A DNA stretch of 64,000 bases from a virus (taxonomy: Duplodnaviria; Heunggongvirae; Uroviricota; Caudoviricetes): the IMG/VR virus record IMGVR_UViG_3300032250_000070, positions 1-64,000 of that record. One strand, written 5' to 3'. Under the pieces are notes generated by a model that was not told the DNA's origin, ran no database searches, and was given only the letters and a program-made list of their open reading frames with translations. Of this stretch, positions 4,566-59,910 are shown one piece after another (the stretch's first letter is position 1; every line of letters begins with the position of its first letter). The position numbers and the translations under genes were made by a program.

Positions 4566-7147
4566 TGGCAATTATAAGATACACAAAAGACGCAACAATC
4601 AGGTATGCCTACCTTAATATCTTCCCTGATCAGTTCAAGACTGAGAAGGAAAAGATGGATGAGAGTTGGATTAAAAACTCAATGGATTACTTTGCTAACA
4701 AGGCTTATGCTGAGTATGTAAAGAACAGAGATACATTTGTTAAAAACTATGACCTTGTAAAAGGCATTTTAAGAAGAGAAGATTTCTACCAAGAACCAGA
4801 AGTAAGAAGCTTCACAGATGTGCTCACAGCAGATCTAGCTCTTCCTGCCTATGTAAAACATTATTCTATAATGACCACTCCTATTAATGAGTTAGTAGGA
4901 GAGATCAGTAAAAGACCTGATGCATTTCGTGTCAAAGCATTTGATGATGATAGTAAATCTGAAGAGCTTGAGTTTAAAACTCAACTATTACAAGACTATG
5001 TTGTTTCTCAAGCACAAAGAAAAATATTAGAGAAAGCAGCATTTGATGGTGTAGAAATTTCAGATGATGAGTTACAAGAGAAAACATTAGAACAAGTAAA
5101 GGATGAACTTGATAGCTACACCTCTGTAGCAGAGAAGTGGGCAAATCACATATTGACTGCTGAGAAAGCTGAGTTTGTATTAAAGGAAAAATCTGAAGAT
5201 GCCTTTAGAGATCTTTTGATTTCTTCTAGAGAATTCTTCCATATATATGAAGACAACTCAAAAACTGGATTTAATGTTGAGGTGGCTAATCCTAAGAACA
5301 CCTGGTTCTTAACCACTCCAGATAGAAAGTATATATCAGATACAACTGGTAGAAACCAAGGAGCATATGCTGCTGGTACTGTACAGGTTATGGAACTATC
5401 TGAAATCATTGAGTCTATTCCAGACTTAACTAAAGATGAGATAGATCACTTACGTAGTTCATTACAAGATTATGGTCTTATCAACGTACGTGAATCTAAC
5501 TTGGGTAATCCTGATGCTGTTCCTGGTAATGACTCTATTCAATATGATACATATGATCCATTAGTCCTACAGACTAGAATGATCATTGAGTCTGAGATGA
5601 AAGAGAACAATGATGGTCTTCAAGATTTCTTAGGACTAACGTCAAACGTTAGCTCTTTTGGTTACAAGTATGTTGTGGTAAGATCCTATTGGATTTCTAA
5701 AAAGAAGATAGGAAAGGTAATATATACAGATGAGATGGGTAATGAACAATCCATGTTAGTAGATGAAGACTATAAATCTAAAACAATTCCTACAGAAATT
5801 TCATTAGAGTGGGGATGGATTAACCAATGGTACCAAGGTATTAAGATTGGTCCAGATATCTATCATATCAAACCTTATAACTTATTACCTTACTGTCCAA
5901 TCATTGGTCAAGTATTTGAAGTGAAGAATACAGAGGCTAAGAGCCTTGTAGATATGATGAAGCCTTTCCAAGTTTTATATAATGTGTGTATGAACCAATT
6001 ATATAAGTTGCTTGAGAAGGAAGTGGGTAAGGTGCAATTAATGTCTATCAGACATATTCCTATTCCTAAGGATGGAGATGCACAAGATGCTCTTGATATT
6101 TGGGAAATGGAAGCTCGTAACAGAGGTGTGGTGTTTGTAGATGACAGCCCTGAGAACTTAAAGAGCCCAAGCTCATTTAATCAATATACTAGCTTAGACC
6201 TTACACGTACGCAGGAGATCCAAGCAAGATATACTTTAGCACAACAACTTAAGAATGAGTGTTGGGAATTGATAGGTATGTCAAGACAAAGACTTGGTTC
6301 TGTACAGGCTAGTGAATCAGCTACAGGTACTAACGCAGCTATTACACAATCTTATGCTCAGACAGAACCTTTGTTTGTAGCTCATGAATATGTATTAGGT
6401 CAGCTATATCAATCAATTATTGATGCAGCTTTATATGTTGAGAGTAAGAAGCCACAGTCTACTATATCTTATGTTACATCTGAGGGAGAATCTGCATTTG
6501 TATCTGTGAATGGTACAGACTTACGTTTTAGAGACTTAAAAGTATTCTTAACTAATAGACCTGAAGACAGACAAATGTTTAATGAAATTAGAGGATTGTC
6601 TCAAGCTGTTATACAAAATGGTGGAAGCTTACATGATGTAATTGAACTATATAGCACCAACTCAATGAGACAAATGAAGCAGGTGTTTAAGAAGTTGAAG
6701 GATAGACAAGAAGCTATACAGAATACTCAGATACAACAGAAGCAACAAGAGATTGAACAACAACAACAAATTGCTCAAGCTCAAATTGAAGCAGCTCAAG
6801 CACAAGCAGAAGAAAAACTAGCTAATGAAAACTATCAAGCTGAACTTGATAGAATCAACAAGAAGGAGATTGCTCTTATTGCAGCTGAGTCTAAGAGTGG
6901 TCCTTTATCAGATCTTGATACTAGTGGCACCCCTGATGTTTTAGAGATTGACAAACTAGCTTTGGCTCAGTCAAAGGCTGAAAGAGACTATCAAGCTAAG
7001 ATGATGGATGTACAAAGTAAGAATCAACTTGCTACTCAGAAGCTAGAAATAGAAAGAGAGAAGCTAAAGATAGCTAGAGAGAATCAAGCAAATGATCTTG
7101 CTGTAGCTAAAGAGAACGCTAAGGGCAGAGCTAAGAAAACCAAATAA
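4565..7147 (+). CDS. portal protein (putative) with Q/A/E-rich C-terminal coiled coil
   Basis: 860-aa ORF. It follows terL with a TAATG junction. A C-terminal low-complexity coiled coil (QQKQQEIEQQQQIAQAQIEAAQAQAEEK...) is present. The call is by position and size only. Confidence 0.5.
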   Translation: MAIIRYTKDATIRYAYLNIFPDQFKTEKEKMDESWIKNSMDYFANKAYAEYVKNRDTFVKNYDLVKGILRREDFYQEPEVRSFTDVLTADLALPAYVKHYSIMTTPINELVGEISKRPDAFRVKAFDDDSKSEELEFKTQLLQDYVVSQAQRKILEKAAFDGVEISDDELQEKTLEQVKDELDSYTSVAEKWANHILTAEKAEFVLKEKSEDAFRDLLISSREFFHIYEDNSKTGFNVEVANPKNTWFLTTPDRKYISDTTGRNQGAYAAGTVQVMELSEIIESIPDLTKDEIDHLRSSLQDYGLINVRESNLGNPDAVPGNDSIQYDTYDPLVLQTRMIIESEMKENNDGLQDFLGLTSNVSSFGYKYVVVRSYWISKKKIGKVIYTDEMGNEQSMLVDEDYKSKTIPTEISLEWGWINQWYQGIKIGPDIYHIKPYNLLPYCPIIGQVFEVKNTEAKSLVDMMKPFQVLYNVCMNQLYKLLEKEVGKVQLMSIRHIPIPKDGDAQDALDIWEMEARNRGVVFVDDSPENLKSPSSFNQYTSLDLTRTQEIQARYTLAQQLKNECWELIGMSRQRLGSVQASESATGTNAAITQSYAQTEPLFVAHEYVLGQLYQSIIDAALYVESKKPQSTISYVTSEGESAFVSVNGTDLRFRDLKVFLTNRPEDRQMFNEIRGLSQAVIQNGGSLHDVIELYSTNSMRQMKQVFKKLKDRQEAIQNTQIQQKQQEIEQQQQIAQAQIEAAQAQAEEKLANENYQAELDRINKKEIALIAAESKSGPLSDLDTSGTPDVLEIDKLALAQSKAERDYQAKMMDVQSKNQLATQKLEIEREKLKIARENQANDLAVAKENAKGRAKKTK

Positions 7148-7149
7148 CT

Positions 7150-7680
7150 ATGTTTGATAAACTAATTGATGTATTAATTGAATGGTGGAATCATATTCTA
7201 CCATTCATCATTGTTAGAGATTATGAACAAGCTGTACTTCTAAGATTTGGAAGGTTTAATCAAGTGTTGCTTCCAGGCATACATTTCAAGATACCTTTCT
7301 TTGATGAGGTGATTGATCAGCATGTTGTAGTTACAACACTTAGTTTGGATGCACAGTCTTTATACACCTTGGACAAACAAAACATTGTTGTCAAGGGGGT
7401 TGTAAAATACAAGATATCAGATGTAAAGATATTCCTACTTGAAGTGTTTGATGCCCAAGATGCATTGTCAGACATGTCTCAAAGCATAATAAAAAACGTT
7501 ATTATGTCAATGACCATGGAGGAATGTACAGATTCTGAGTTAGACAACACTTTAACAAAGAAGGTGAGAGTGGAAGCTAGGAAGTGGGGTGTTGATGTTC
7601 AACAAGTTACATTGACAGACCTTGCTCCAATTAGAAGCTATAGGCTTATAAATGACAATTTTCTTAACAAATTAGATTAG
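7150..7680 (+). CDS. SPFH (band 7 / stomatin-prohibitin-HflK/C) domain protein
   Basis: 176 aa. It matches the SPFH core along its whole length: ...YEQAVLLRFGRF..LPGIHFKIPFFDEVI...VVKGVVKYKISDV... and the C-terminal WGVDVQQVTLTDL (compare WGIxVxxVxIxDI). Confidence 0.8.
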   Translation: MFDKLIDVLIEWWNHILPFIIVRDYEQAVLLRFGRFNQVLLPGIHFKIPFFDEVIDQHVVVTTLSLDAQSLYTLDKQNIVVKGVVKYKISDVKIFLLEVFDAQDALSDMSQSIIKNVIMSMTMEECTDSELDNTLTKKVRVEARKWGVDVQQVTLTDLAPIRSYRLINDNFLNKLD

Positions 7681-9115: not shown

Positions 9116-10669
9116 ATGGCAATTCAAACAATTCCAGGTTTAACTGGATTTACTTATGCTCGTGTCGCTTCTATGGATAAGCGTGCAGTAGGTAAGTTAA
9201 CTGACTCAAACCATTTAGAGAGCTTTCACTCTACAGAGCCTGCAGACTATGATAAGAAGATTATCAGTTTGTACACTCAGAGTTCTCTTTATAGTAATGA
9301 TTTCTTAGACATGATTAACAAGTCTACTCCTTACTATATCGATAACAACAGTGATGCTTGGAAATGGCAAGTACAAGTTCCTTACAAATTCCCAAAAATC
9401 ATTGATGTTCCTACTTCAACTTTAGAGTTGTCAAAGCCAGGTATTGATGGTCAAGAGTTCCAATTGATCCTTGACACAAATGAGTTCTCTAAGAACGCTA
9501 TCATTTCTGTAGGTACTCGTCAGTATGGTCCTCGTTTCTATGTAGTAAAAGATCCTGTTCCTTGGAACATGGGCTTCTTGTACACTTTCACTTTAGTAAG
9601 TGACAACCCAACAGTTGATTTCGTAAGTGCTACTTTCTTACAAGTAGGTATCGAATTAGAATTGGTTGATGCTGCTATTGGTGAGTTCGATCAAGACTTA
9701 TTAGGTCTTCCTCGTTTAGGTGAGCAAATCACAATGTTTGAATCTTTAGGTTCTGCATATGGTTATGAGCACAAAATCACTGAGTGGGCTGATGACAAGA
9801 TGATGAGAGATGCTTCTGGCAAACCTTTAGATATCTTAGTATATGCTCCTCAAAGACGTAACCAATTACCTTTAACTCGTAATGATGTTAAGTGGGAACC
9901 ATTTATTGAGTTCTGGATGCGTAAGTCTATGTTAGAATTAAAAGTTAAGCGTATGATCTGGGCTCGTCCAGGTACTGTGAAGACTAATGGTTCTAAGCAA
10001 GAATTAAAGCGTACATCTGCTGGTGTTTACCACAGAATGCGTAACAATGGTAACTTAGTTCAATACAATCGTGGTGAGTTCACTGCAAACTTGATTCGTT
10101 CAGTGTTTGGTGACTTATTCTACAGACGTGTTGATGTTAAAGATAGAAGAGTTAAAATGTACACTAATGAAGCTGGTTTTGACGTGTTCCAACAAGCTTT
10201 GAAGAATGACGCTTTGAACTCTGGTTTAACTTTCATGGCTGATTCTGGTAACAGATACATGCAAGGTGAAGGTCAACATATCACTTACAACTTTGCATTC
10301 GATGCAATGGTAACTCGTGAGACTGGTCGTGTTGAATTAATTCACTTGAAAGAATTAGACTTACCTCAAACAAACTTAGAATTTGGACAAAACAAGAAGT
10401 CAACTCCAGTATTTATGGTGTTCGATGTATCTCCAATGTCTGATGGTTCTATGATCAATAACATTCGTGAAGTACGTATGAAGGGTGCTCCTTCTATGAC
10501 TTGGGGTTATATCGATGGTACTCGTCACCACTTAGGTTTTGCTAAGTCTCAAGGTATGAGTTCTGCGAACAAATTCCCTGGATATGAAATCTGGATGAAG
10601 GATCGTTGTGATGTATTCATTGAAGATTTATCTAGAACAGTATTGATTGAAGAGATTCCTCAATTCTAA
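9116..10669 (+). CDS. major capsid protein (putative)
   Basis: 517 aa. It follows the scaffold-like gene. Frequent GGT/CGT/TTC codon choices suggest codon usage of a highly expressed gene. A strong hairpin follows. Confidence 0.55.
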   Translation: MAIQTIPGLTGFTYARVASMDKRAVGKLTDSNHLESFHSTEPADYDKKIISLYTQSSLYSNDFLDMINKSTPYYIDNNSDAWKWQVQVPYKFPKIIDVPTSTLELSKPGIDGQEFQLILDTNEFSKNAIISVGTRQYGPRFYVVKDPVPWNMGFLYTFTLVSDNPTVDFVSATFLQVGIELELVDAAIGEFDQDLLGLPRLGEQITMFESLGSAYGYEHKITEWADDKMMRDASGKPLDILVYAPQRRNQLPLTRNDVKWEPFIEFWMRKSMLELKVKRMIWARPGTVKTNGSKQELKRTSAGVYHRMRNNGNLVQYNRGEFTANLIRSVFGDLFYRRVDVKDRRVKMYTNEAGFDVFQQALKNDALNSGLTFMADSGNRYMQGEGQHITYNFAFDAMVTRETGRVELIHLKELDLPQTNLEFGQNKKSTPVFMVFDVSPMSDGSMINNIREVRMKGAPSMTWGYIDGTRHHLGFAKSQGMSSANKFPGYEIWMKDRCDVFIEDLSRTVLIEEIPQF

Positions 10670-12579: not shown

Positions 12580-13740
12580 ATGGCTGATTTTTCATTAACT
12601 ACCCTCTTTGTAGTACCAGTAGGAAACACATTACCTAGCTCTGGATCTACACAGAATTTAACAGCTGGTCAAGTAGGTATTTTCCTAAATGACTACACTG
12701 TTGCAACAGCTGGTAACATCGCTGCTGCCCCTTATTTTTATGTTGCTCAAGGTAGAGTAAACACTTATTTACAAGGTTCTAAGCGTTCAGACAAAATCTC
12801 TGGATGTCCTGGTGGATCTTCTTGTAAGTCAAACGTAACAGAATGGTACAAATCTTTAGGTTGTCCTACTCCAGTGAATCAAGTAACTGATGTAGTTGGC
12901 TTCACAGTAAAACCTGGTGAGATTGTAACATTAACTTTACGTGGTTTCTCTAGCTACTTGAACACATTGTATTTCAATGGTTTCACTCGTTCAGTAACAG
13001 TAAACGCTCCATGTCTTGGATGTGGTGATGATCCTTGTGCTGACGTTGATGTACCTGCATTGATCGATCAATTGATTCTTAAATTAGAATCACATGCTCC
13101 TGGTGATAACCCAGACAACATTTATTTGACTCAGTTCTATCAGTTCCAAAGAATTGGTAACAATCAAAATGCGTTGTTACGTATCACTGGTAAGCCATTA
13201 ACTAAATATGGTCAGCCTTGTGATGTTGCTGCATTCCCTTTTGAGTATGACAGATTCTACTTCAGAACTTTCATCTTTGCTGGTCCAGCTACAACTGCTG
13301 ACTTCATTGTTGATGATCCTTGTAATAGAGTTGCTACTCCAGTAATCACACAACGTTCTAACTATGCTGTTGGTACTTCTGCTGAAGTTCAACAATTAGA
13401 GAAGAACTTCTATAGCTACCAAGCTGGTTACTTAAAGCATCTTTACAGAATGAATGGTTACAACGAGAACTTTGAGTCTTGGGTAACTGATGGTCAAATC
13501 TATGATTTGTACTATATCAAATTCAATGAGTATGATAAGAGTGCTTACCAATGGGGTGACTATATTATGGAAGATAGCATGGTAATCATTGCTGTTCCTG
13601 AGAACCAAACAACTGCTATCGAAGCTATTTTAGTAGCTGGTTTAGGAGCTGTAGCTGGTGACACAGATTGTATTACTACTACTAGTACTACAACTACTGT
13701 ATGGCCTAGCACTTCAACAACAACTACCTTGATCCCTTAA
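12580..13740 (+). CDS. major structural protein (candidate major tail/sheath or second capsid component) with Thr/Ser-rich C-terminal tail
   Basis: 386 aa. The C-terminus is ITTTSTTTTVWPSTSTTTTLIP. A clean intrinsic terminator follows. Confidence 0.5.
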   Translation: MADFSLTTLFVVPVGNTLPSSGSTQNLTAGQVGIFLNDYTVATAGNIAAAPYFYVAQGRVNTYLQGSKRSDKISGCPGGSSCKSNVTEWYKSLGCPTPVNQVTDVVGFTVKPGEIVTLTLRGFSSYLNTLYFNGFTRSVTVNAPCLGCGDDPCADVDVPALIDQLILKLESHAPGDNPDNIYLTQFYQFQRIGNNQNALLRITGKPLTKYGQPCDVAAFPFEYDRFYFRTFIFAGPATTADFIVDDPCNRVATPVITQRSNYAVGTSAEVQQLEKNFYSYQAGYLKHLYRMNGYNENFESWVTDGQIYDLYYIKFNEYDKSAYQWGDYIMEDSMVIIAVPENQTTAIEAILVAGLGAVAGDTDCITTTSTTTTVWPSTSTTTTLIP

Positions 13741-15913: not shown

Positions 15914-17860
15914 ATGGCTTGTAATCCTGGCGATCCTTGCTACAACGCATACTATCATCCAAGTGAAAACTGTGGTTCTTTTCCTTGTGAAACAACAGCA
16001 GATCGTGTTATATATAATGGACCTAACTTACCTAATACAGGAATCAACACTGGAGATAATCTAGACTGTGCTCTATTAAAAATAGATGAAACATTTAGTG
16101 GTGGTGTAGTGGGTATAAATGGTACATCTGGTAGTTCTGGATTAAATGGATCTAGTGGTAGATCTGGTACTTCTGCCACTGCTGGCACATCTGGAGCTAA
16201 TGGTGCAGCAGGTACTTCTGGAACAAATGGTACATCAGGAAACAATGGTACTAGTGGTATATCTGGTACAAATGGTGTATCTGGAAGCTCTGGTACATCT
16301 GGTCGTGAAGGTCAGCCTGGTACCTCTGGTAGTTCTGCATCAAGTGGTTCATCAGGCACTTCTGCCACTGCAGGAACATCTGGAAGAGATGCAACTTCTG
16401 GTTCATCTGGTCAAGATGGTAGCTCTGGTACGAGTGCAAGCTCAGGTACATCTGCATCTAGTGGAACTTCTGGAACTACTGGTACTACTGGTACAAGTGG
16501 TACAACTGGAACTACTGGTACATCAGGAACATCAGGTGTTGATGGTGGTCTTGCAATCTGGCAATATAGTTCAGATACTACTGATACATCTATTAATCCT
16601 GGAGCAGGAAGGTTTACATTAAATACTTTACTTTGGAACGTTGCTCCAACACAGATTGCTCTAAGCGACTTTGCACAAATTCCTGCAGCAGATTTCTCTT
16701 TATATTTAGAAGGTATTCAAACTGGTGTAGTGTTTAAGTTTGTAAGTACAATTGATCCAAACAGATTCAAAATACTTCAAGTTATAGCTACAGCACCTTT
16801 TGAAACAGGGTTTGAAACATATGTTGTAAGTGAAATAGCGTGGAATGGTACAGCTCCAGCAAATGGTGAGCAATTTGTGTTCACTGTAACAAGTATTCCT
16901 GGTGCAGCTGGATCATCTGGCACATCTGGATCTTCAGCATCTAGTGGTACATCTGCGTCTAGTGGTACGTCTGCATCATCTGGAACCTCAGCATCTTCTG
17001 GAACAAGTGGAACCTCTGGTACCAACGGTACTAGTGGAACTAATGGAACTAGTGGTTCTAGTGCGACTAGTGGTTCTAGTGGAACTTCAGGTACTAATGG
17101 TACATCTGCTACTGCTGGAACAAATGGTACGTCTGCATCTAGTGGAACTAGTGGTTCTACAGGCACATCAGGTACTAATGGTACTAGTGGTTCTAATGGC
17201 ACCTCTGGAACAAATGGTACCACTGGAACATCAGCTTCTAGCGGTACATCTGCATCGTCTGGAACTAGTGCAGCAAATGGAGCAAACGGATCTAGTGGAA
17301 CAAGTGGAGCAAATGGTGGTAATGGATCTTCTGGAACCTCTGGAGCTAATGGTGGAGCTGGATCTTCTGGAACCTCTGGAGCTAATGGCGGAGCTGGTGG
17401 AGATGGATCTAGTGGAACTAGTGGAGCCAGTGGTGGAAGTGGTTCATCAGGAACTTCTGGAGTAGGGTTTACTTCCATTTCACCAACTAATTCAGGAGCT
17501 GTGCTAACAGCTAATGGAACATCTAATAGTGCAACAGCAAATACAGGTGTAACAATAAGTGGTTCTAATCTTACTGCCGCAGCATTTTTTGAAAGTTCAG
17601 ATGTAAGATTTAAAAATGTAATTGAAACCAATCCTCAAATAGATTTAACAGATATAGATATAATTAAGTTTACAAGAACTGATGATGATACCAATGCAGT
17701 AAGATATGGATATTCAGCACAACAAGTGCAATCTATATTACCAGATGCTGTGACAGGAGAAGACAAATTAAGTGTAAACTATATGGATGTTCACACATTG
17801 AAAATAGCAGCATTAGAAAAACGTATTGCAGAATTAGAAGCTAAATTGAGTAACTTATGA
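15914..17860 (+). CDS. collagen-like (G-X-Y, X-Y mostly T/S/N/A) tail fiber with C-terminal intramolecular chaperone / peptidase S74 auto-cleaving domain
   Basis: Two long GTSGTNGTSG... triple-helix repeat arrays lie at about nt 16120-16545 and 16900-17460. The C-terminal ~87 aa begin SDVRFKNVIE ... YGYSAQQ ... LPDAV ... VNYMDVHTLKIAALEKRIAELEAKL. This is the SDxRxKxNI start motif and coiled-coil tail of endosialidase/T5 L-shaped tail fiber chaperone domains. Confidence 0.85.
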   Translation: MACNPGDPCYNAYYHPSENCGSFPCETTADRVIYNGPNLPNTGINTGDNLDCALLKIDETFSGGVVGINGTSGSSGLNGSSGRSGTSATAGTSGANGAAGTSGTNGTSGNNGTSGISGTNGVSGSSGTSGREGQPGTSGSSASSGSSGTSATAGTSGRDATSGSSGQDGSSGTSASSGTSASSGTSGTTGTTGTSGTTGTTGTSGTSGVDGGLAIWQYSSDTTDTSINPGAGRFTLNTLLWNVAPTQIALSDFAQIPAADFSLYLEGIQTGVVFKFVSTIDPNRFKILQVIATAPFETGFETYVVSEIAWNGTAPANGEQFVFTVTSIPGAAGSSGTSGSSASSGTSASSGTSASSGTSASSGTSGTSGTNGTSGTNGTSGSSATSGSSGTSGTNGTSATAGTNGTSASSGTSGSTGTSGTNGTSGSNGTSGTNGTTGTSASSGTSASSGTSAANGANGSSGTSGANGGNGSSGTSGANGGAGSSGTSGANGGAGGDGSSGTSGASGGSGSSGTSGVGFTSISPTNSGAVLTANGTSNSATANTGVTISGSNLTAAAFFESSDVRFKNVIETNPQIDLTDIDIIKFTRTDDDTNAVRYGYSAQQVQSILPDAVTGEDKLSVNYMDVHTLKIAALEKRIAELEAKLSNL

Positions 17861-18728: not shown

Positions 18729-19355
18729 ATGACAGTATTAATAACATTAACATTAGCAGGGACAGATGTAGGTCCCTTCAACCTTTATTCAAACGTGGAT
18801 GGATATACCACTCCATTAGCAACAGGAGTATCTAGAGCTGCATTAATAGCAGGATATAATCTTTTAAATGTCCCAGATACAGCTGCTGTTATCAGAGCAC
18901 AATCTACAGGCACTTGTACAAATTATCTTGATATGCTTTTGAGTGGAGGAACAACCACTACAACTAGTAGTACATCTTCTACTTCTACAACAACTTCTAC
19001 CACTACACCAGCTGTAGCATGTCTTACTGGTGACACAAGTGCTGTGGCATCATGTGCAGGTGGAGAATCAGCTTTATTTACAGTCTCTTCAGGTAACACA
19101 GCTCTTATCACTCCTGGTGGATATTACTACTCTGGATCTGGTACAAGAACTTATACAGCATACATTATGAATGCTGCTAATGATACAGTGTTGTACACAT
19201 TTAACTATACCCAAATAGGTTCTTCTCCAGGTAGTTGGACATCTGATTTGCCTCTTAACACATTGTCTGCAGGTAGCTATCGCTTAAGAACAGATACAGT
19301 GAACTGTTTCTCTAGCTCTGGTTCATTTAGTCTGAATGCTACATGTAATTCATAA
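18729..19355 (+). CDS. member 1 of a paralogous virion protein family (shared ~70-aa N-domain) with a poly-T/S linker
   Basis: The N-terminus is ...GTDVGPFNLYSNVDGY...AGY..NVPD...R.QSTGTCTNYLDM. This aligns with the N-termini of ORFs 28448 and 28887. It is followed by a TTTTTSSTSSTSTTTSTTTP linker. Confidence 0.55.
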   Translation: MTVLITLTLAGTDVGPFNLYSNVDGYTTPLATGVSRAALIAGYNLLNVPDTAAVIRAQSTGTCTNYLDMLLSGGTTTTTSSTSSTSTTTSTTTPAVACLTGDTSAVASCAGGESALFTVSSGNTALITPGGYYYSGSGTRTYTAYIMNAANDTVLYTFNYTQIGSSPGSWTSDLPLNTLSAGSYRLRTDTVNCFSSSGSFSLNATCNS

Positions 19356-19541: not shown

Positions 19542-20789
19542 CCTGAAAATCAATCCTTGCTGCAACAGTTAGAAGAGATCTTACATTGGAAAAAGAGTAA
19601 AAAATTCTATGCTGATAAGCTTGGAATTACAGAGATTGAGGTGGAAGAGTTATTAAAAGAATTAAGAAATCAGGAACAAAGTGAAGAAGCTGCTGAGATA
19701 GGCAACTATGTTGCTGAGTTAGAAAACGCAGTGATTAAGTTTACAGAAGATCTGGCTAAGGGTACAGGAGAGGTTGTAGCCAATTTTAGTGAAGAGGTTA
19801 AGAGCCTTGATGAACTCATTGAGAAGTGTAAGATAGATACAGAGAAGTGGGAGATAACCAAATATGTCCAAAACTTCTGGGGAAATGGAAACAATCCTCA
19901 TTGGCAAGTCAAAGCATGGTTAGGGAAGAAGTCTACAGAACAAGTTTTTCAAGATGTGTTTGTAGACTTTTTAGCTTCATATAAGCCTGTTAGTCAAGAA
20001 GTTATGAGTCCTAAGGTTGACTTTAACAAACCAAATGGTATGTTAGTTATCAACAAACAAGACTCTCACTTAAACAAATGGGACATAGATGGTAACAATA
20101 ATGTGGCAGATAGATTAGCTAACATTATGTACAAGGTGGAACTGATAGCTAATCAAGCTCAGTTGTCCAATAACTTAGAGAACATAACTTACATAATAGG
20201 ATCTGATGAGTTTAACAGTGAGTATACCAATGCCACTACAAAAGGAACTCCTCAACAGAATACACATACATATCATACATCTTTTGAATACATCTGTGGA
20301 CATGAGGTGCTAATGATTACAATGTTATTACAATATGCTCAGACTGTAAATGTTGTATATGTAGCAGGTAACCATGATGAGTTTGTAGGATGGCATATGG
20401 TTAATTGGTTACAAACCTATTTTAGGAACGTAGAAAGATTAACATTTGACTGTTCTCCTAAGTATAGAAAGTATGTAAGTTATGGTGATTCAGCAATGAT
20501 GTTTAACCATGGAGATGCTATCAAACCAGCTAAGCTTGCAGCTTTATTCCCAATAGAGTTTAGAGAACACTGGTCTAGTCATAGCAAGTTCTACATCTTC
20601 ACAGGAGACAAACACCATGAGGTGAGTCATGATTTTAATGGTATAAAGTTTTATCAAATTCCAGCATTTTCAAATGCTAAAAGTCTTTGGGACGACAAGA
20701 TGGGTCACACAATGTCCAAGGCAGAAGTAACAGGATTTTTAATAGATGACTGTGATGGAATGACAAATATATTCAAACAGTATTTATAA
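19539..20789 (+). CDS. calcineurin-like metallophosphoesterase
   Basis: 416 aa. The motifs VYVAGNHDEF (GNHD/E) and MFNHGDA are typical of the metallophosphatase fold. Confidence 0.65.
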   Translation: MPENQSLLQQLEEILHWKKSKKFYADKLGITEIEVEELLKELRNQEQSEEAAEIGNYVAELENAVIKFTEDLAKGTGEVVANFSEEVKSLDELIEKCKIDTEKWEITKYVQNFWGNGNNPHWQVKAWLGKKSTEQVFQDVFVDFLASYKPVSQEVMSPKVDFNKPNGMLVINKQDSHLNKWDIDGNNNVADRLANIMYKVELIANQAQLSNNLENITYIIGSDEFNSEYTNATTKGTPQQNTHTYHTSFEYICGHEVLMITMLLQYAQTVNVVYVAGNHDEFVGWHMVNWLQTYFRNVERLTFDCSPKYRKYVSYGDSAMMFNHGDAIKPAKLAALFPIEFREHWSSHSKFYIFTGDKHHEVSHDFNGIKFYQIPAFSNAKSLWDDKMGHTMSKAEVTGFLIDDCDGMTNIFKQYL

Positions 20790-21526
20790 TGGCAACATTA
20801 AGACAAATGGTTTCAGATGTACGTTCAGTACATAAATTGCTCACTACAGATAATCTAATTACTGATAGAGTGGTTGCGTCTGAAATTAAGAACAACACAT
20901 ATTTACTAATCAAACGTGAGACTAATCTCAGAAAGCTTTGGGCTACTGACACTGTATTCCAAACACTTCCTTGTTTGGAAATGATAGAGGTGCCTATTTC
21001 TGATTGTTGTGAATATGTGGACCCTTGTCAAGTTGCAAGAAGCAAATATAAACTTCCTCGCATGAGTGAAGGAAACTATCAATACTTAATCCAGGGTGTT
21101 TATTCTATAAACGCTATGGGAGGTAATGCTAAAAGATTCAAAGAGATTACAATCAATAGATACTTAAATCTATTAAAACTACCTATTATCAAAGCTGAAC
21201 AATACTATTGGATAGCTAATGGTGGGTATTTATATATTAACAATCCAAACTTACAATCAGTTAGAATATCTGCATTCTTTGAAGAAGATGTTCCAAACAG
21301 TATTTTATATCCTGATGGTTGTTCTTGTGGAAACATTCCTCAAGTTAGTAATGAAGATTACTGTATGAATCCATTAGACAAAGAATTTGGATGCCCAGGA
21401 TACTTAATAACACAAGTGTTACAACTTACTTCTCAAAAACTATTATCGACATACTTTAGCATTAAAACAGATCAAACATTTGATGGCATTGACGGACAAG
21501 CTCCCAATGCAAAACCAACAAGCTAA
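20789..21526 (+). CDS. hypothetical protein
   Basis: 245 aa, TAATG-coupled. Confidence 0.5.
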   Translation: MATLRQMVSDVRSVHKLLTTDNLITDRVVASEIKNNTYLLIKRETNLRKLWATDTVFQTLPCLEMIEVPISDCCEYVDPCQVARSKYKLPRMSEGNYQYLIQGVYSINAMGGNAKRFKEITINRYLNLLKLPIIKAEQYYWIANGGYLYINNPNLQSVRISAFFEEDVPNSILYPDGCSCGNIPQVSNEDYCMNPLDKEFGCPGYLITQVLQLTSQKLLSTYFSIKTDQTFDGIDGQAPNAKPTS

Positions 21527-22008: not shown

Positions 22009-22977
22009 ATGGCATATTACTACAAATACAATTTTGTCTCACCTGAACCAATTTATTCAATTGTTAAGGAAGAGTTAAAATCTTATTTTGACACAGGGGC
22101 AGTGGATGATTTGCTTTTCCCTACTTATTTAGACAAATGTCTACAGAAGTTAGGTAGGTCAAGTTATGTTATTGCTGAACAGACATTGGATATTTCTGGT
22201 TATGAGGCTAGGCTTCCTGACAACTTCTTTGCTGTTAGAGAAGCTTGGATGTGTACAGAGCTTCCTCAACGTCCATACCAAACCCCTAACTCATTCTATT
22301 CTCAAGCTGCTTCTCAAACAACAATACAAATAAGTCCTATCATTAGTGGTGGGGTTCCTTGTGTAGAACCTAATTGTACAACAGGATGTCCTACATGTAT
22401 GCCTGATATCATCCAAGCAGTGTATAAAACCAATCAGCAAATAGCTAGAGGTATAAAAAAAGAATACTTATTAAAACCAGGTAATATATCTTGTCAAGGC
22501 AAATGTGATGTGAGTTATACAGATGCTTGGCAGTTTTATTCAACTGCCCCTCCTGTGCATGAATTCACTCCAGGAAGTGCTGGATATGATAGCTTTGATA
22601 TTAGAGATAATAAGTTTGTTACCAATTTTAGTTGTGGTGTGGTTCATATGATATTCTATGCTACAGACTATGATGCTGTTGGTAATCAATTAATTCCTGA
22701 TAACTATCGTGTAAGAGAGTTTATAGAAGCATTTATTAAGTTCAAGGTGTTTGAAACTTTAACAAATCAAACTAATGATGAAACCTTTAACCAACTTCAA
22801 ACTAAGTTAGCTTATTACAAACAGTTACATGATGAGGCATTCATTATGGCTAGTATTGAAATAAAGAAACAAGACGCATGGACTAAACAAAGAAGAGTAA
22901 GAAATGACTTACAACGCTTTGGACAATATGAATTACCAAATAGAAGCTCAAGATATGGCAGTGGATGGAACAGATAA
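22009..22977 (+). CDS. hypothetical structural protein (Cys-containing)
   Basis: 322 aa. Its 3' end overlaps the next giant ORF in the +1 frame. Confidence 0.5.
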   Translation: MAYYYKYNFVSPEPIYSIVKEELKSYFDTGAVDDLLFPTYLDKCLQKLGRSSYVIAEQTLDISGYEARLPDNFFAVREAWMCTELPQRPYQTPNSFYSQAASQTTIQISPIISGGVPCVEPNCTTGCPTCMPDIIQAVYKTNQQIARGIKKEYLLKPGNISCQGKCDVSYTDAWQFYSTAPPVHEFTPGSAGYDSFDIRDNKFVTNFSCGVVHMIFYATDYDAVGNQLIPDNYRVREFIEAFIKFKVFETLTNQTNDETFNQLQTKLAYYKQLHDEAFIMASIEIKKQDAWTKQRRVRNDLQRFGQYELPNRSSRYGSGWNR

Positions 22978-25900: not shown

Positions 25901-28423
25901 AGAGATATCAAAGTGGTATCTTATTATGGTTCTATAAAGACTATTAATAATGCTCAATGGGGACAGATATATTCATATCAAACAATTGATACAGGATTCC
26001 AAAGAATATTCAGTGCAATATCTGCTAATGATCCTGAAGTGGTATTTGGTGGTGATACATATATTGGTAAGTTTGGATTTAAAACAAAGCTTCCTTTCTT
26101 TATTGACAACAGAGTTAATGCTCCTGATGATTCTGATATATACTATGATGAGGTTGGTAATGTAGCCTATCCACAATATTGGTATTCAGCTAGATCTATA
26201 CTATCTGATTACTATGTAGGAAGCACATTGATGAAGAATATAATCTCTACCAAAGCAAATTATTTAGACTGTCCTGATGATAATATTGTTGATAATACTT
26301 CTACAAGTACAACAACTACATCAACTACACCTCCTCCTGGAACAGTAACAGCTGGTTCTTTGAATTATGTATATAGTGGTAAGATGTATTTGTTTGCTTA
26401 TGGTATTCCTTACTTCTATGTAGAGAGTTCTATTAATGTAGATTTACGTCAAGCATTCAATAACTTAGAAGGTGACTTCTACCCACACGTAAGTTCAGGT
26501 ATTCCTGATAGCTGGTTCCAAGAAAGTAGAGTTCCTATTGCTTTTGATAACACATATTATTACAATACAACCTTCTCTAAGCAGAATACAGAAAACTTCT
26601 TTTCTCATTTACCAGCAGACTGGATAAAGCAACTGTGTTATAGAAACTTTCCATTCAGAGCAATATACTCTGACAGACAAGAAAGTTATTCTGATAATAG
26701 AATAAATAGCTGGTTGATATATCGTCCAGTGAGCTTCTTTGATTTCCCTCAAAATTATGGTAATCTTATATCTTTAGATGGTATTCAGAACAGAGCTACA
26801 TTAGCTAGATTTGAGAATAAGACATTGCTATATGGTAACTTATTAACTATTGATACAAGTAACCCTCAATCTGCATATGTAGGAAATCCTTATTTGTTTG
26901 GTGGTCCTGGTGGAACTCCTCCAGTAGATTATGCTGAGACAGACCTTGGATTTGTTGGTTGTCAGAATAAGTTTTTACTCAAGATACCTCAAGGACAAAT
27001 AACTATTGATGCTAAGAGAGGTCAGATATTTTTAATTCAAGGAACGCAAGCACAAGATATTTCAGGATTTGGTTCTGGTCTTAATAGATTCTTTACAGAT
27101 CATTTGGCATTTGAAATCTTAAGATATTTCCCAACAGTGGATACAGACAACCATTTTAAAAACATTGGATTACATGGTGTATTTGATAGTAAGTTTGAGA
27201 GAGTTATTATCACTAAGTTAGACTACATTCCTCAGCCAAATAAAGATGTGCTTTATGATGAGGTGGCTAAAGAGTTTTATGTTAACCAACCTGTGGCTGG
27301 TGATATTTCAGTTAAGAAATACGTTGAGGTGACAGATCTTGAATACTTCTGTAATAAATCATGGACTGCATCATTTAACTTGAATACAAAGAGCTGGGTG
27401 AGCTTCCATACATACCTACCTAACTTCTACATAGGAGAAAACAATTTCTTCTATTCTGGATTAAATGAAGGTTGTGATATCACAGCATTGGCAGTTACAG
27501 AAATACCTTCTCCTACCACAACTACTACAACAACAGTAATTCTATATTGTAACTTGTCTGGTACAGCAGTGGTAACAGGATACCCTTGTGAATTAGAAGG
27601 AACAGCTGTAGAAGAAACTACTACTACCACGACTAGCACTAGCACTACTAGCACAACATCAACTACTACTACTGTTGCTCCTTCATGCTTTCTTGTACCA
27701 GGATCTTTTACAAGAGAACCAAGTTGTGTATTAGTAGCAGGAGAATTTATACGTACAGGAGGTACAACTACTACCACGTCTACATCCACATCTACTACAA
27801 CCACTACAACTACACTACAACCATCTCTTTATAGATATAGTTCAGCAAGCTTTGAAGATGCTTGTGCTACTGGATTAGAAATGGACAATGTAGTATTAAC
27901 TGATCCACCATTCTGTTCTGCAACTGCAATACAATGTGATGAGTTTGTATTAGCTCCAGCTGGTGTAGAAGTATGGGTTCGCACTGGTAATAGTTATAGA
28001 GCTGCAACAATTAATGATCCTAATACATCTGGAATTGCTACATTCACTGCAACAACATGTGTTTTATGTCCAACAACTACAACTAGTACTTCTTCTACTA
28101 CTACTACCACTACAACTGCGGCACCTGTTACAAGAACTGTAACTAACCTTGGTGCAAGTGCTTCTGATATATTAGGAGAAATTTATATAAATGCATCAGT
28201 AACTCTTAGTGGTAATGTAAATGCAGATACTATAATAGAAGTAGTTGTATCTACTGTTCCATATGGTAATGTCACTGTATATGTTACAATACTTAATGGT
28301 AATTCTTCAGGCAGTGGTTCAACTTTTGTTGGACAGGGAAGTGTTCCTTCTGCAATTGATGGTCAATGTATTGCAGCTTCTGATAACGTATATGTAACTT
28401 TCACTGGATTTCAATGTGTTTAA
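22904..28423 (+). CDS. giant (about 1820-1839 aa) virion structural protein with at least five poly-Thr/Ser linkers; candidate baseplate/fiber/adhesin
   Basis: The start is uncertain: in-frame ATGs lie at 22904, 22928 and 22955. Linkers: TSTTTTSTTPPPGT (about 26290), TTTTTTTV (about 27510), TTTTTSTSTTSTTSTTTTVAP (about 27620), TTTTTSTSTSTTTTTTTLQP (about 27770), TTTTSTSSTTTTTTTAAP (about 28080). Confidence 0.6.
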   Translation: MTYNALDNMNYQIEAQDMAVDGTDNQGTSNVRQEYNLGRVGLDMDSSVNQVQKGKLSYALNAALENFDSNSVSYQNEPSNEACLEFPEGYQLIGTHFIQEKNKHIFFLANPQTGGSEIGYMDNNDCVYRTLCTEYPDLEITVCANSDCLNFDIDHPIHKAVHKITNCTTEVYWTDGLNPRRFINIEQVPYITTYLNNQTCDPQIQAVLDCNKLNVQPNFQIPNIEVSDIVVGGDLKAGTYQFAVQYGNASGDAYTSYYSVTNPASIANTEITTPDFQYSVGQSIVLDITNLDVSGYFQYFNLAVIKTINNGTTVELVGTYSIQEKETLITYTGQNMTQIPLSLGDVLEKFPYYDIAQDVTNVQDYIVWDNLTSIDRINYQSIANQIQLQWETYKLPAGNTYADAFYTANLRGYLRDEVYAFEIVFLLNNGKQTDGFHIPGRVKNFNELSEPDVTTANNDYIGDGTPQPYWKIYNTASVSTTYPAPTDGSRKIGDAYPYQSGEFAYWESTDRYPCNVDVWGDLADEPIRHHKFPDVLVSPYFESPTIIYSGGQIDPVMQVANATYPIGVKIDVQQVAFAIQRSSLTDAEKASIVGFKIVRGNRSANKSIIAKGILRNVGKYTREDPTDPDATYYYYPNYPYNDLSEDPFLLERNNAYNSQCDTYSVSVTTAGTLQYTNCFTGEPDTQAFNSSTTEICSITLPVVNSGEATFTNVTTTSYTITVNSSILSTTFNYTDPVTDALRSIVVPKSSSRSVNSNTVPVRTSGTTNYTMVASNSGQNNECYPAKLNGFNNPDSAYRQVFNSPETSFGQPTLGNVLKLESVLFGGGRAHFVEVQKHAMYKLITKQTQIDALDSSKRIADLGGFSPVAFFTAYQTYLQIYINGISRQNFAYSFNSRSSYDYSADVPNDQGIKQRQLDKVQYVFPGVQNVGDNYDLNNWNRESSVYIKTIDNRNGVPFTVSPLPYPNQTSSLVVAGVSQISDNSRFTISEAENCASPEAQRDIKVVSYYGSIKTINNAQWGQIYSYQTIDTGFQRIFSAISANDPEVVFGGDTYIGKFGFKTKLPFFIDNRVNAPDDSDIYYDEVGNVAYPQYWYSARSILSDYYVGSTLMKNIISTKANYLDCPDDNIVDNTSTSTTTTSTTPPPGTVTAGSLNYVYSGKMYLFAYGIPYFYVESSINVDLRQAFNNLEGDFYPHVSSGIPDSWFQESRVPIAFDNTYYYNTTFSKQNTENFFSHLPADWIKQLCYRNFPFRAIYSDRQESYSDNRINSWLIYRPVSFFDFPQNYGNLISLDGIQNRATLARFENKTLLYGNLLTIDTSNPQSAYVGNPYLFGGPGGTPPVDYAETDLGFVGCQNKFLLKIPQGQITIDAKRGQIFLIQGTQAQDISGFGSGLNRFFTDHLAFEILRYFPTVDTDNHFKNIGLHGVFDSKFERVIITKLDYIPQPNKDVLYDEVAKEFYVNQPVAGDISVKKYVEVTDLEYFCNKSWTASFNLNTKSWVSFHTYLPNFYIGENNFFYSGLNEGCDITALAVTEIPSPTTTTTTTVILYCNLSGTAVVTGYPCELEGTAVEETTTTTTSTSTTSTTSTTTTVAPSCFLVPGSFTREPSCVLVAGEFIRTGGTTTTTSTSTSTTTTTTTLQPSLYRYSSASFEDACATGLEMDNVVLTDPPFCSATAIQCDEFVLAPAGVEVWVRTGNSYRAATINDPNTSGIATFTATTCVLCPTTTTSTSSTTTTTTTAAPVTRTVTNLGASASDILGEIYINASVTLSGNVNADTIIEVVVSTVPYGNVTVYVTILNGNSSGSGSTFVGQGSVPSAIDGQCIAASDNVYVTFTGFQCV

Positions 28424-28447: not shown

Positions 28448-28876
28448 ATGGCATTTTCAGCAACAATAAGTTTAAGTTCAGCAGGAGCAGATACTGGTCC
28501 ATTTAATCTGTATTCAAATGCAGATAGTTATGTTACAGCATTTGCATCAGCAGTTCCTAAAGCATCTATACTTGCAGGATATTTATCAAATGCTGTTCCT
28601 GATTTAACAACAATTTGTAGAGTTAAATCTACAGGTACCTGTACTAATTATGTAGACATGCCTATTGATGATCCTTATATTTACGTTTATCAAAAGTGTG
28701 GTACAACGCAGTATTTTTATAATCCAGGAGTGATAGCAGTTAAAGTGCAAGATGATAATTCTCCTACACCTAATTGTTATGAAAAAGTAAATGAAGGTTT
28801 ACTAAGTGCAATGGACGTATTGTACGCTCTTACACTTAATTTAACATTAGTTAGCTCAACTTGTGATTGTGTTTAA
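28448..28876 (+). CDS. member 2 of the paralogous N-domain family
   Basis: MAFSATISLSSAGADTGPFNLYSNADSY...STGTCTNYVDM. This is strongly similar to the 18729 N-terminus. Confidence 0.55.
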   Translation: MAFSATISLSSAGADTGPFNLYSNADSYVTAFASAVPKASILAGYLSNAVPDLTTICRVKSTGTCTNYVDMPIDDPYIYVYQKCGTTQYFYNPGVIAVKVQDDNSPTPNCYEKVNEGLLSAMDVLYALTLNLTLVSSTCDCV

Positions 28877-29757: not shown

Positions 29758-30279
29758 ATGGAAATCTGGAAAAATATACCTAGTCTTAACAATTTATATG
29801 AAGCAAGTAATCTTGGTAGAATAAGATCTGCATATGGTAAAAACAAAGGTAAGGTTCTAAAAGAGTATATTAAACATCCTTCAAATATTAATTATAATTT
29901 TGTAGAAGTACATATAGATGGTAAAAAATGGGCAAAGAAAGTACACAGACTTGTAGCTGAAGTATTTTGTGAAAATTCTGAAAATTATCCTATTGTGATG
30001 CATTTAGATAATGATAGAAGAAACAATAGAGTAGATAATTTACAATGGGGTACATTAAAGATGAATTCTCAACAAATGATTACTGAAGGAAGAGGAAATA
30101 AATCTAAAGGTAGTGATCATTATTTTTCAAAACTAACTGAGGATCAAGTAGTTGAAATAAGAAAAAAGTATATTCCTAGAAAATATACTTTACAACAATT
30201 AGCTAATGAGTATAGTGTAAGTTTTGGTTTAATTGGACATGTAGTAAAAAATAGAAATTGGAAACACGTAATTGCATAA
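29758..30279 (+). CDS. HNH homing endonuclease (NUMOD4-like N-terminus + HNH_3)
   Basis: IWKNIPSLNNLYEASNLGRIRS matches the IPGFEGYYEVSNxGRVRS-type motif. HRLVAEVF...HLDNDRRNNRVDNLQWGT is the HNH_3 core. It is a free-standing selfish element inside the structural module. Confidence 0.8.
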   Translation: MEIWKNIPSLNNLYEASNLGRIRSAYGKNKGKVLKEYIKHPSNINYNFVEVHIDGKKWAKKVHRLVAEVFCENSENYPIVMHLDNDRRNNRVDNLQWGTLKMNSQQMITEGRGNKSKGSDHYFSKLTEDQVVEIRKKYIPRKYTLQQLANEYSVSFGLIGHVVKNRNWKHVIA

Positions 30280-57842: not shown

Positions 57843-57848
57843 CCCAAC

Positions 57849-59464: not shown

Positions 59465-59910
59465 TAACAGTATTATTTGGACAGCCTCATTCAGGCAAGA
59501 CAACTCTATCTCATGAGTTAGAAAGTTGGACATTAGATGGAGACAAGCTTAGGGCTGTGTTCCAGGACAAAGATTTCTCTAGAGAAGGACGTATTAAAAA
59601 CCTAAATAGAGCTAGTGACATTGCTGTGTTTATGCATTCAATATACAAGAATATCTCAATAGCTATGGTCTATCCATATAAAGAAGCTAGAGATTATTTA
59701 AACAACCTGTGTACTAAGCTAGGAGTAGAGATTGTATGGGTACACTTATATTATTCTGAACAAAGAGGTAGAGAAGCTTTTCATGTACAAGATTTTGAAT
59801 TAGATCTTTTAGAAGAAAATGTTCTATCTTTGAACACTTCAATGTATTCAATAGAAGAATGTATTGCTCAAATTAAAAACTATACAAATGAATATTCTAG
59901 CAAAAGGTAA
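59461..59910 (+). CDS. cysC: adenylylsulfate (APS) kinase
   Basis: P-loop VLFGQPHSGKTTLSHELE. LDGDKLRAVFQDKDFSREGRIKNLNRASDIAVFM aligns with the CysC LDGDNVRHGLN.DLGFS..DR.ENIRRIGEVAKLF block. Confidence 0.85.
   Translation: MITVLFGQPHSGKTTLSHELESWTLDGDKLRAVFQDKDFSREGRIKNLNRASDIAVFMHSIYKNISIAMVYPYKEARDYLNNLCTKLGVEIVWVHLYYSEQRGREAFHVQDFELDLLEENVLSLNTSMYSIEECIAQIKNYTNEYSSKR

Follow-up and report, generated by a model that had tools for sequence, protein, structure and literature searches.

The 64,000-nucleotide stretch analysed here (the window; positions 1 to 64,000 of IMG/VR virus record IMGVR_UViG_3300032250_000070) is the structural half of the genome of a distant crAss-like phage, in which proteins on the exterior of the virion carry uninterrupted runs of threonine and serine, and in which an island of modifying genes includes a predicted protein O-glycosyltransferase of the bacterial autotransporter heptosyltransferase (BAHT) family, to which TibC and AAH belong. 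Two conclusions are well supported: exposed proteins of the virion carry the runs as disordered arms or linkers, and the phage, judged from sequence, encodes a protein O-glycosylation enzyme within a conserved multi-enzyme cassette. That the poly-Thr arms serve as the glycan acceptors of this phage-made O-glycosylation is a tentative reading, to which we assign slightly less than an even chance.

Tracts were defined as Ser/Thr runs of at least seven residues and sought in all six frames of the window. They occur, one antisense artefact aside, in only three plus-strand genes, as eight tracts of 7-19 residues: five in the muzzle protein (MUZ), two in the auxiliary capsid protein (AUX) and one in a small protein, p208. 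With Thr and Ser together making up 12.1% of residues in the long open reading frames (ORFs), our own arithmetic predicts about 0.01 runs of this length per 64-kb reading frame by chance, against the eight observed. Nine Thr and Ser codons are mixed within them (ACT 42, ACA 29, TCT 9, ACC 8, AGT 5, AGC 4, plus others), which argues that the tracts are preserved for their amino acids and are no simple trinucleotide repeat. A first-pass annotation of the same DNA had described at least five tracts of 8-21 residues in the 1839-residue protein, another closing the product of 12580-13740 and a third site within 18729-19355, all in what it took to be virion proteins; the five tracts and their coordinates stand, with the range corrected to 7-19, the closing tract resolves into two runs at the extreme C-terminus, the third site is a single run of 19 residues, and the assignment of the carriers to the virion agrees with the profile and fold matches given below. 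A literature search on threonine-rich linkers in phage proteins returned nothing relevant.

The longest carrier belongs to the family of the crAss001 muzzle protein gp44, as indicated by a crAss_MUZ profile score above the gathering threshold (Table 1) and by the position of its gene directly downstream of those for the tail proteins Ring2 (20789-21526) and Ring1 (22009-22977), both recognised by Pfam; a sequence search of the protein against the PDB found nothing. Relatives encoded on 228 IMG/VR viral contigs share 51-85% identity over residues 1-1099, and the layout of the protein is that of a body conserved across the clade (residues 1-1537) followed by a variable appendage of about 300 residues, conserved only in the closest relatives. 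Tract 1 is inserted within the conserved body; part of the clade shares it at this position and other relatives lack it. Nearly all complete relatives have a tract at about residues 1490-1555, where tract 2 ends the body here. Structure prediction with AlphaFold2 (AF2), which covered residues 1638-1839, placed tract 5 at a predicted local distance difference test (pLDDT) score below 50 beside a C-terminal module, m5, modelled at about 90-95; a fold search of m5 against the PDB gave no significant match, with weak resemblance to carbohydrate-binding-module (CBM2, chitin-binding) or immunoglobulin-like (Ig-like) folds. Modules m5 and m4 both recur elsewhere fused through poly-Thr to a p208-type anchor (m5 in protein P0135, m4 in P0137), and across 80 relatives the muzzle carries from 1 to 13 tracts of 7-61 residues. 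The disorder, the variable C-terminal modules, these fusions and the variation of the tracts together indicate that the muzzle tracts are interdomain junctions across which display modules are exchanged. The two short segments at 27536-27763 each contain a duplicated CxLxG-type motif, and there are 30 Cys residues in the muzzle protein and nine in AUX; together these features suggest that the segments between muzzle tracts could be disulfide-stabilised mini-domains.

The same plan is repeated on a smaller scale in p208, whose N-terminal domain occurs in 86 tract-split modules of related muzzle and flanking loci (L001-L091) and whose C-terminal domain is found only in the closest relatives. The product of 28448-28876, p142, had been proposed as its paralogue and indeed shares a 70-residue N-terminal domain with it (55% identity, E 1e-22); it lacks a tract in this phage, and 23 tract-bearing ORFs of related loci have p142 as their best match. 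In the muzzle and the p208/p142 proteins, then, tracts lie between a conserved part that anchors the protein to the virion and variable, exchangeable modules displayed at the tail tip or on small appendages, and the more modest alternative offered in the first-pass annotation, flexible inter-domain linkers, describes the muzzle and p208 tracts correctly: by architecture they are linkers, lying at disordered junctions between folded or swappable modules.

Identification of AUX in this distant clade rests on a predicted fold and on synteny. Its AF2 model, with a mean pLDDT of only 69, has the two-domain PH and FliD-like fold of crAss001 gp36 and matches that protein (7qof_a, 333 residues) in Foldseek at E 3e-8 with probability 1.0, followed by domains D2-D3 of FliD, and the gene order agrees with that of crAss001 gp32-gp36. 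Homology to gp36 is not detectable by sequence (BLASTP E 0.19; profile comparison with hhalign, probability 0.1), and a sequence search of AUX against the PDB found nothing, within a family that comprises more than 3600 homologous proteins in the database. Residues 365-386, which include the arm, are modelled at pLDDT below 50. A poly-Ser/Thr C-terminal arm is present in 41/41 clade homologues at 61-81% identity, in most of them as C[IV]TTTSTTTTVWPSTSTTTTLIP or near it, ending LIP, and in the most divergent the Thr-richness is kept while the VWP core or the LIP end is lost. In the wider family the arm is found in 17/67 full-length representatives, and several tail-less homologues (among representatives P0139-P0288) still end in hydrophobic-x-Pro (PLIP, PIIP, PLTP, PIVP); because these keep the terminal motif, the poly-Thr arm is taken to replace an older, non-Thr arm, and the Thr-rich spacer appears, on this comparison, to be younger than the arm and its end motif, which may dock onto a neighbouring subunit. 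In crAss001, gp36, described as having FliD-like domains, forms together with the MCP (major capsid protein) insertion domain (I-domain) a large part of the capsid's exposed surface, nine gp36 copies being present per asymmetric unit (PMC10172136). By that arrangement the arm of about 21 residues would be displayed some 540 times on the capsid surface.

The candidate O-glycosyltransferase, encoded at 60455-61531, is classed in Pfam as GT9 (glycosyltransferase family 9) only, scores 250.3 bits on NCBIfam model TIGR04414 (cut-off 200, E 2.8e-74) and reaches 24 bits on the lipopolysaccharide (LPS) heptosyltransferase I model, for which the cut-off is 185. Residues 25-355 match TibC (PDB 4RAP) at E 1e-48, and no LPS heptosyltransferase structure is among the PDB matches of the protein, even at E 10. 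Characterised BAHT enzymes move heptose from ADP-heptose onto Ser of an autotransporter's passenger domain, and this modification of protein substrates takes place in the cytoplasm. Features of TibC include the catalytic Asp110, the sugar-site residues Thr226, Lys230, Trp305 and Arg286, an iron finger of Cys residues and a thumb (PMC4358343). In the window enzyme the catalytic Asp corresponds to D96, within an LGD motif, Thr226, Lys230 and Trp305 to T208, K212 and W273, and the iron-finger residues C339, C342, C358 and C370 to C308, C311, C327 and C339, all of them invariant in 16 phage homologues. The position of Arg286 is occupied by Val in the window enzyme and by Thr or Ser in other clade members, with Arg found only in the distant loci L124 and L127; the beta-hairpin thumb (TibC 261-270, with F265/V266) falls in an alignment gap; every clade member is without this insertion, which only L124 has. 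Deletion of the thumb makes a TibC-like dodecamer doubtful, and with Arg286 replaced the donor sugar may not be ADP-heptose, so the enzyme is best described, on the strength of its alignment, as a divergent BAHT-family member that may differ in its oligomeric state, its donor sugar and its acceptor. No autotransporter gene is present in the window.

No PHROG family matches the window enzyme, and a literature search found no paper linking the BAHT family to phages. Homologues are encoded on at least 600 IMG/VR contigs (loci L093-L197 among them), some of which measure 195-322 kb, and four phage records match: Microcystis phage Mel-JY01 (PP395634) and three huge-phage records of 636-735 kb (LR756501, LR756503, LR756504). 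The Mel-JY01 match is the C-terminal part of a 1226-residue protein annotated 'methyltransferase FkbM', an FkbM-BAHT fusion adjoining a 'structural protein'. The phage proteins form a group of their own, with at least 45% mutual identity among the matches kept; chromosomal homologues (for example, those of Bradyrhizobium and Burkholderia), mostly proteobacterial, share about 33-37% identity with the phage enzymes, and the few closer bacterial matches (41-65%) are short contigs binned into metagenome-assembled genomes (MAGs). The search with a single BAHT protein missed true homologues on the contigs of loci L028, L005 and L017, and absence from its listing was not used as evidence.

The island of phage-encoded glycosyltransferase, sulfotransferase and methyltransferase genes that had been proposed for this phage is present, and the predicted TibC/AAH-family enzyme is part of it: a plus-strand arm (56976-60271) converges with a minus-strand arm comprising the BAHT enzyme, a GT4-type glycosyltransferase and a large glycosyltransferase cut by the window end, full-length relatives of which (L093, L099) have 884-887 residues and an N-terminal GT4 domain (Glycos_transf_1). 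The order of large multidomain glycosyltransferase, GT4 and BAHT is kept in about 25 related loci, and in some relatives the cassette is enlarged by a more LPS-like second GT9, a GT2, an FkbM methyltransferase, a 2-oxoglutarate (2OG)-Fe(II) oxygenase and a DUF6445 protein. An apparent near-absence of the island in relatives, obtained by tblastn within 10 kb downstream of a 1666-residue protein, was rejected as a flank artefact, direct BAHT searches having found the enzyme gene on the same contigs. The APS-kinase-like gene, a gene for a nucleotidyltransferase of 127-135 residues and the sulfotransferase gene travel together in relatives; the small nucleotidyltransferase of the window shows a faint ATP-sulfurylase match (E 0.002), and the APS-kinase-like and nucleotidyltransferase pair may be a phage-borne supply of activated sulfate. 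A small DUF6165 protein accompanies BAHT in 47/105 loci (for example, L093:4357-4815), often directly adjacent, and may be a partner or specificity factor of the enzyme. Together with two collagen-repeat fibre proteins of the window (15914-17860 and 52663-56679), the oxygenase and DUF6445 proteins of relatives (L099:4389-5084 and 9426-10004) recall how collagen-like proteins are hydroxylated and glycosylated in giant viruses. On its far flank the island is bordered by a lysis cassette with a GH19 endolysin. Beyond the lysis cassette, outside the window, lies a conserved phrog_4417 protein (L093:126-1241; 338-371 residues; also in L289, L298, L300, L304, L311 and L330), and in six relatives Ser/Thr tracts are encoded within about 2 kb of its homologues, mostly on both sides.

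A census of tracts of at least seven residues in 80 related virion modules, with loci taken together with 10-kb flanks, found 269 tract genes among 1138 (~24%), compared with 9/910 (~1%) in other phage loci fetched through the shared endolysin, 1/648 in bacterial loci, and none in the virion modules of crAss001 and of Leptolyngbya phage Lbo-JY46. Among the families concerned are the muzzle, p208/p142-like proteins, AUX, collagen-like fibres and a number of small ORFs. In L364 and L365, where AUX lacks the tail, the virion module has a single 8-residue tract, upstream of AUX, and none in the downstream fibre-like genes, and in the distant relative L367, where AUX has the tail, a fibre-like gene also carries a tract. 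Since unrelated proteins share the trait, and since it is near all-or-none per genome in the few cases checked, we infer that one shared cause affects the virion as a whole.

The enzyme and the tracts are associated, suggestively and not strictly. BAHT and MUZ are encoded on one contig in all six near-complete relatives that could be checked (L001, L006, L017, L028, L069, L078) and on several partial contigs, and crAss001 and Lbo-JY46, whose virion modules are tract-free, are not among the four BAHT phage records. In 71 de-duplicated BAHT loci, tract genes are over-represented up to 1.5 kb from the 3' end of the BAHT gene (10/135 vs 26/985 elsewhere; odds ratio 2.95, p = 0.007) and absent from the 6 kb upstream (0/323); a strict test of the immediate 3' neighbour was negative (2/70), with small ORFs intervening. 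The products of the tract genes near BAHT are small, belong to at least three families unrelated to one another, DUF7936 among them, and all have a C-terminal poly-Thr tail. Such neighbours, exemplified by L115:9738-10085, L116:8852-9241, L192:13153-13500 and L174:11037-12077, are proteins of 94-137 residues with a globular domain and a tail, convergent to BAHT, and one of these families is also encoded inside a virion module (L076:6043-6405).

Table 1. Features of the window that bear on the tracts and on the modifying enzymes, in order of position.
Feature	Position	Strand	Basis or remark
Auxiliary capsid protein AUX (crAss001 gp36 homologue), 386 residues	12580-13740	+	Fold match, synteny
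AUX C-terminal poly-Thr arm, TTTSTTTTVWPSTSTTTTLIP	13675-13737	+	Runs 13675-13698 (8 residues) and 13708-13728 (7 residues)
p208: 71-residue conserved N-terminal anchor, 19-residue tract (18951-19007), variable C-terminal domain	18729-19355	+	Sequence comparison
Muzzle protein MUZ (crAss001 gp44 family), 1839 residues	22904-28423	+	Pfam PF25731 crAss_MUZ, E 1.5e-39, 136.4 bits vs gathering 27
Tract 1, 11 residues (1132-1142), TSTSTTTTSTT then PPPG	26297-26329	+	Six-frame scan
Tract 2, T7 (1538-1544), end of conserved body	27515-27535	+	Six-frame scan
Short Cys-bearing segment, internal duplication CNLSGTAVV / CELEGTAVE	27536-27616	+	Conserved only in closest relatives
Tract 3, 19 residues (1572-1590)	27617-27673	+	Six-frame scan
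Second short Cys-bearing segment, duplication CFLVPGSF / CVLVAGEF	27674-27763	+	Sequence
Tract 4, 17 residues (1621-1637)	27764-27814	+	Six-frame scan
Module m4, Cys-rich, mixed helix and strand (1638-1723)	27815-28072	+	AF2 pLDDT 50-67
Tract 5, 15 residues (1724-1738), predicted disordered	28073-28117	+	Six-frame scan; AF2 pLDDT <50
Module m5, confident all-beta sandwich at C-terminus (1739-1839)	28118-28420	+	AF2 pLDDT ~90-95
p142, p208 paralogue with same N-terminal anchor, no tract here	28448-28876	+	55% identity, E 1e-22
Conserved protein heading the plus-strand arm	56976-57842	+	No Pfam/NCBIfam match; co-occurs with sulfotransferase in relatives
Sulfotransferase	57849-58670	+	Pfam Sulfotransfer_3, E 2e-15; weak NoeE and protein-tyrosine-sulfotransferase similarity
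FkbM-family methyltransferase	58670-59464	+	Pfam Methyltransf_21, E 9.5e-18; TIGR01444, 89 bits
APS-kinase-like P-loop protein	59461-59910	+	Pfam APS_kinase, E 7e-8; below NCBIfam cut-offs
Small nucleotidyltransferase, cytidylyl/adenylyl-transferase superfamily	59888-60271	+	TIGR00125, 32.7 bits vs 27.7; Pfam CTP_transf_like
BAHT-family (TibC/AAH-like) protein O-glycosyltransferase, predicted, 358 residues	60455-61531	-	TIGR04414, TibC match
GT4-type (GT-B) glycosyltransferase, same operon as BAHT	61518-62531	-	Pfam Glyco_trans_1_4, Glycos_transf_1
C-terminal half of large protein cut by window end (listed as 433-residue ORF)	62528-64000	-	Frame open to base 64000

If the tracts are acceptors, the arms would be O-glycosylated in the host cytoplasm during infection, before or during assembly, with the TibC/AAH-family phage enzyme placing the first sugar on Thr or Ser and two further enzymes, the GT4 product of the adjacent gene and the large multidomain glycosyltransferase, lengthening the glycan. 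The FkbM methyltransferase may decorate this glycan, as may the sulfotransferase, fed by the products of the APS-kinase-like and nucleotidyltransferase genes. The outcome would be a mucin-like, possibly sulfated coat, giving stiffer and longer arms, protection from proteases and an altered surface chemistry of the virion; the acceptor role of the tracts, the identity of the sugar and any sulfation are what we infer from the features described above.

Several observations weigh against glycosylation of the arms by the phage enzyme. Poly-Thr or Pro-Thr linkers can function also without sugars. What TibC and AAH modify, in the work on these enzymes (PMC4358343), is Ser on autotransporters with a folded beta-helix, not disordered Thr runs, and TibC needs its beta-hairpin thumb for the dodecamer and for glycosylation of TibA, a thumb that the phage enzymes are without, alongside the substitution of Arg286 by Val, Thr or Ser. 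The island lies on the strand opposite to the virion genes, which bears on the timing of expression, the enrichment of tract genes beside BAHT is modest and its statistics ignore phylogeny, a tract-bearing gene lies within 10 kb in only 34/105 phage BAHT loci (71/105 are without one), and 28 kb around the Mel-JY01 fusion contain no tract. The idea that linkers equally present in relatives without glycan-modifying genes would speak against glycosylation finds a divided answer: BAHT is encoded in every near-complete relative that could be checked, whereas L298 and L300/L301 lack the cassette, which is accessory, at its usual site and keep tract-rich genes, and most BAHT loci have no tract-bearing gene within 10 kb. 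In a rival account the tracts are unmodified hydrophilic spacers that provide reach, flexibility and module swapping, the island acting elsewhere, for instance on a host surface glycan or protein, as the second, more LPS-like GT9 of relatives would allow. It is consistent with tracts that sit exactly at domain junctions, are predicted to be disordered and range over 7-61 residues between relatives, with modules swapped across poly-Thr junctions, with the tract-free anchor of the paralogue p142, with the retention of tracts in L298 and L300 where the cassette is missing from its usual site, and with an AUX arm whose poly-Thr replaces an older, non-Thr arm with the same kind of hydrophobic-x-Pro end. 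It leaves unexplained why near-pure Thr has come to make up essentially all virion linkers and arms throughout a clade, in 24% of virion-module genes, with few or none outside it, why lytic-type phages keep a protein O-glycosyltransferase cassette, and why small ORFs with poly-Thr tails cluster beside BAHT, and we regard it as a serious but rather doubtful explanation.

Should the virion be glycosylated, its acceptors could instead be other structural proteins, chiefly the collagen-like or otherwise repetitive fibres encoded just upstream of the island (15914-17860 and 52663-56679). In favour, repetitive beta-helices are the substrates known for BAHT enzymes (PMC4358343), the genes for the fibres come immediately before the island, their products contain 32-34% Ser+Thr, and the 2OG-Fe(II) oxygenase and DUF6445 proteins of relatives fit the hydroxylation and glycosylation of collagen-like repeats. 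In the fibres, however, no autotransporter-like repeat was detected (Pfam finds only Collagen and a weak Peptidase_S74 match), the AUX tail and the poly-Thr-tailed ORFs near BAHT would be unaccounted for, and 24 fibre-homologue ORFs in relatives carry poly-Thr themselves, so that the two readings overlap; fibres as the acceptors are thus an unlikely alternative to the arms. Slippage-prone contingency repeats or neutral low-complexity expansion would suit the wide variation in tract length between relatives, yet the tracts use nine mixed Thr and Ser codons, are all in frame and confined to virion genes, and in the AUX tail are near-constant in length and sequence at 61-81% protein identity, which makes an origin of this kind very improbable. 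Tailed-phage virion parts assemble in the cytoplasm. The first-pass annotation had also appealed to the general O-glycosylation system of Bacteroidetes, and Crassvirales are indeed found mostly on Bacteroidota (PMC10136315), with one muzzle-module homologue binned into a Crocinitomicaceae MAG. That system recognises the motif D(S/T)(A/I/L/V/M/T) in substrates exported from the cytoplasm (PMC8729774); the motif occurs once in AUX, twice in MUZ and three times in p208, and in none of the tracts, no host could be assigned, and the nearest cultured relative by MCP infects a cyanobacterium, so the appeal is not upheld and modification of the tracts by a host system of this type is scarcely credible.

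Set beside characterised BAHT enzymes (TibC, AAH; 4RAP; TIGR04414), the window enzyme shares an alignment of about 330 residues, the catalytic Asp, three of four sugar-site residues and the four iron-finger Cys; it differs in being phage-encoded, in the lack of an autotransporter and in its putative acceptors, disordered Thr runs instead of Ser in beta-helix loops. Candidate acceptor genes often adjoin the enzyme gene in phage relatives, and tibC-tibA and aah-aidA are likewise reported to be pairs of enzyme and acceptor genes. Mycobacteriophages (Che8, Corndog and Myrna; Freeman et al. 2023) are described as glycosylating the C-termini of capsid and tail-tube proteins with their own glycosyltransferases (cited in PMC12619734, PMC12363180), and the phage of the window resembles them in combining a glycosyltransferase cassette with a Thr-rich C-terminal tail on a capsid-surface protein. 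Its carriers, however, are AUX and the muzzle and not the major capsid or tail-tube protein, the host phylum and phage lineage are different, and the island additionally contains methyl- and sulfotransferases.

Secreted glycoside hydrolases have Pro/Thr-rich linkers between their domains (the CBM2 linkers of Cellulomonas fimi are one example), which are O-glycosylated outside the cytoplasm by host enzymes; these linkers too are disordered stretches of hydroxy amino acids that separate a body from small beta-sandwich modules, whereas the proteins of the window are cytoplasmic virion parts with nearly pure Thr tracts. Serine-rich-repeat adhesins of Gram-positive bacteria, glycosylated in the cytoplasm by GtfA/GtfB (GT4) encoded nearby, offer a likeness in their hydroxy-amino-acid repeats and GT-B enzymes, a GT4 adjoining BAHT in the window; the tracts of the window are Thr-rich and short by comparison, and the system is viral. 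In crAss001, the counterparts gp44 and gp36 are the same virion parts in the same gene order, and the head fibres gp21 and gp29 combine a short capsid-binding N-domain with a flexible C-terminal Ig-like domain (PMC10172136), a plan that p208 and p142 match. Unlike the window, crAss001 has no tract of at least seven residues in its virion module, a gp36 without a poly-Thr tail and no BAHT enzyme detected in the phage collection, and linked modules make the muzzle of the window longer than its counterpart by about 300 residues at the C-terminus. Phage virion glycosylation, BAHT enzymes and glycosylated Thr-rich linkers are each known singly; what is new is their combination in a crassvirus, that is, a viral BAHT branch and poly-Thr arms on capsid-surface and tail-tip proteins, with methyl- and sulfotransferases alongside.

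Besides the ring and muzzle proteins, Pfam recognises a crassvirus MCP (9116-10669, E 2e-28) and a P22-like portal (4565-7147) in the window. The nearest cultured relatives by MCP are Lbo-JY46, with a cyanobacterial host (26% identity), and the Flavobacterium psychrophilum FpV4 group (22%). Assignment of a host failed here, with cultured relatives as distant as 22-26% in MCP identity, chromosomal BAHT homologues mostly proteobacterial, cluster names that gave no indication and no tRNA genes found in positions 1-64000. In crAss001 and Lbo-JY46 the regions corresponding to the tRNA-free window contain large tRNA arrays. Several sample numbers of related IMG/VR records match names of Lake Mendota MAGs, which suggests a freshwater origin. 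An SPFH/Band 7 protein (E 7e-26) is encoded at 7150-7680 between the portal and the likely scaffold genes, an unusual place for this domain, and a NUMOD4/HNH homing-endonuclease gene (29758-30279) lies within the structural module soon after the muzzle gene.

Even without glycosylation, the tracts are mapped here as junctions for module swapping at the tail tip, and AUX is identified in a distant clade. To our knowledge, the only role described for BAHT enzymes is the virulence-associated modification of autotransporters. It is conceivable, though somewhat on the doubtful side, that a large and unrecognised branch of this family, present on at least 600 IMG/VR contigs that range from crAss-like to jumbo phages, has been re-targeted in environmental phages from autotransporters to the disordered poly-Thr arms of virion proteins; in the crAss-like clade of the window, the enzyme and its accessory glycosyl-, methyl- and sulfotransferases would then cover the capsid surface, with its 540 or so AUX tails, and the tail-tip modules with a mucin-like, possibly sulfated coat. 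Were glycosylation of the arms true, it would provide a first case of a glycosylated virion among crassviruses and a first BAHT substrate other than an autotransporter; the family would then include a large viral branch acting on acceptors of a new type, and a cytoplasmic glyco-engineering tool for simple Thr tags could come of it. For the phages themselves, virion glycosylation would reach from mycobacteriophages to a very abundant environmental group, and a self-made glycan coat would affect adsorption, stability, aggregation with polysaccharide or mucus, and the way in which grazers or immune systems recognise the virion.

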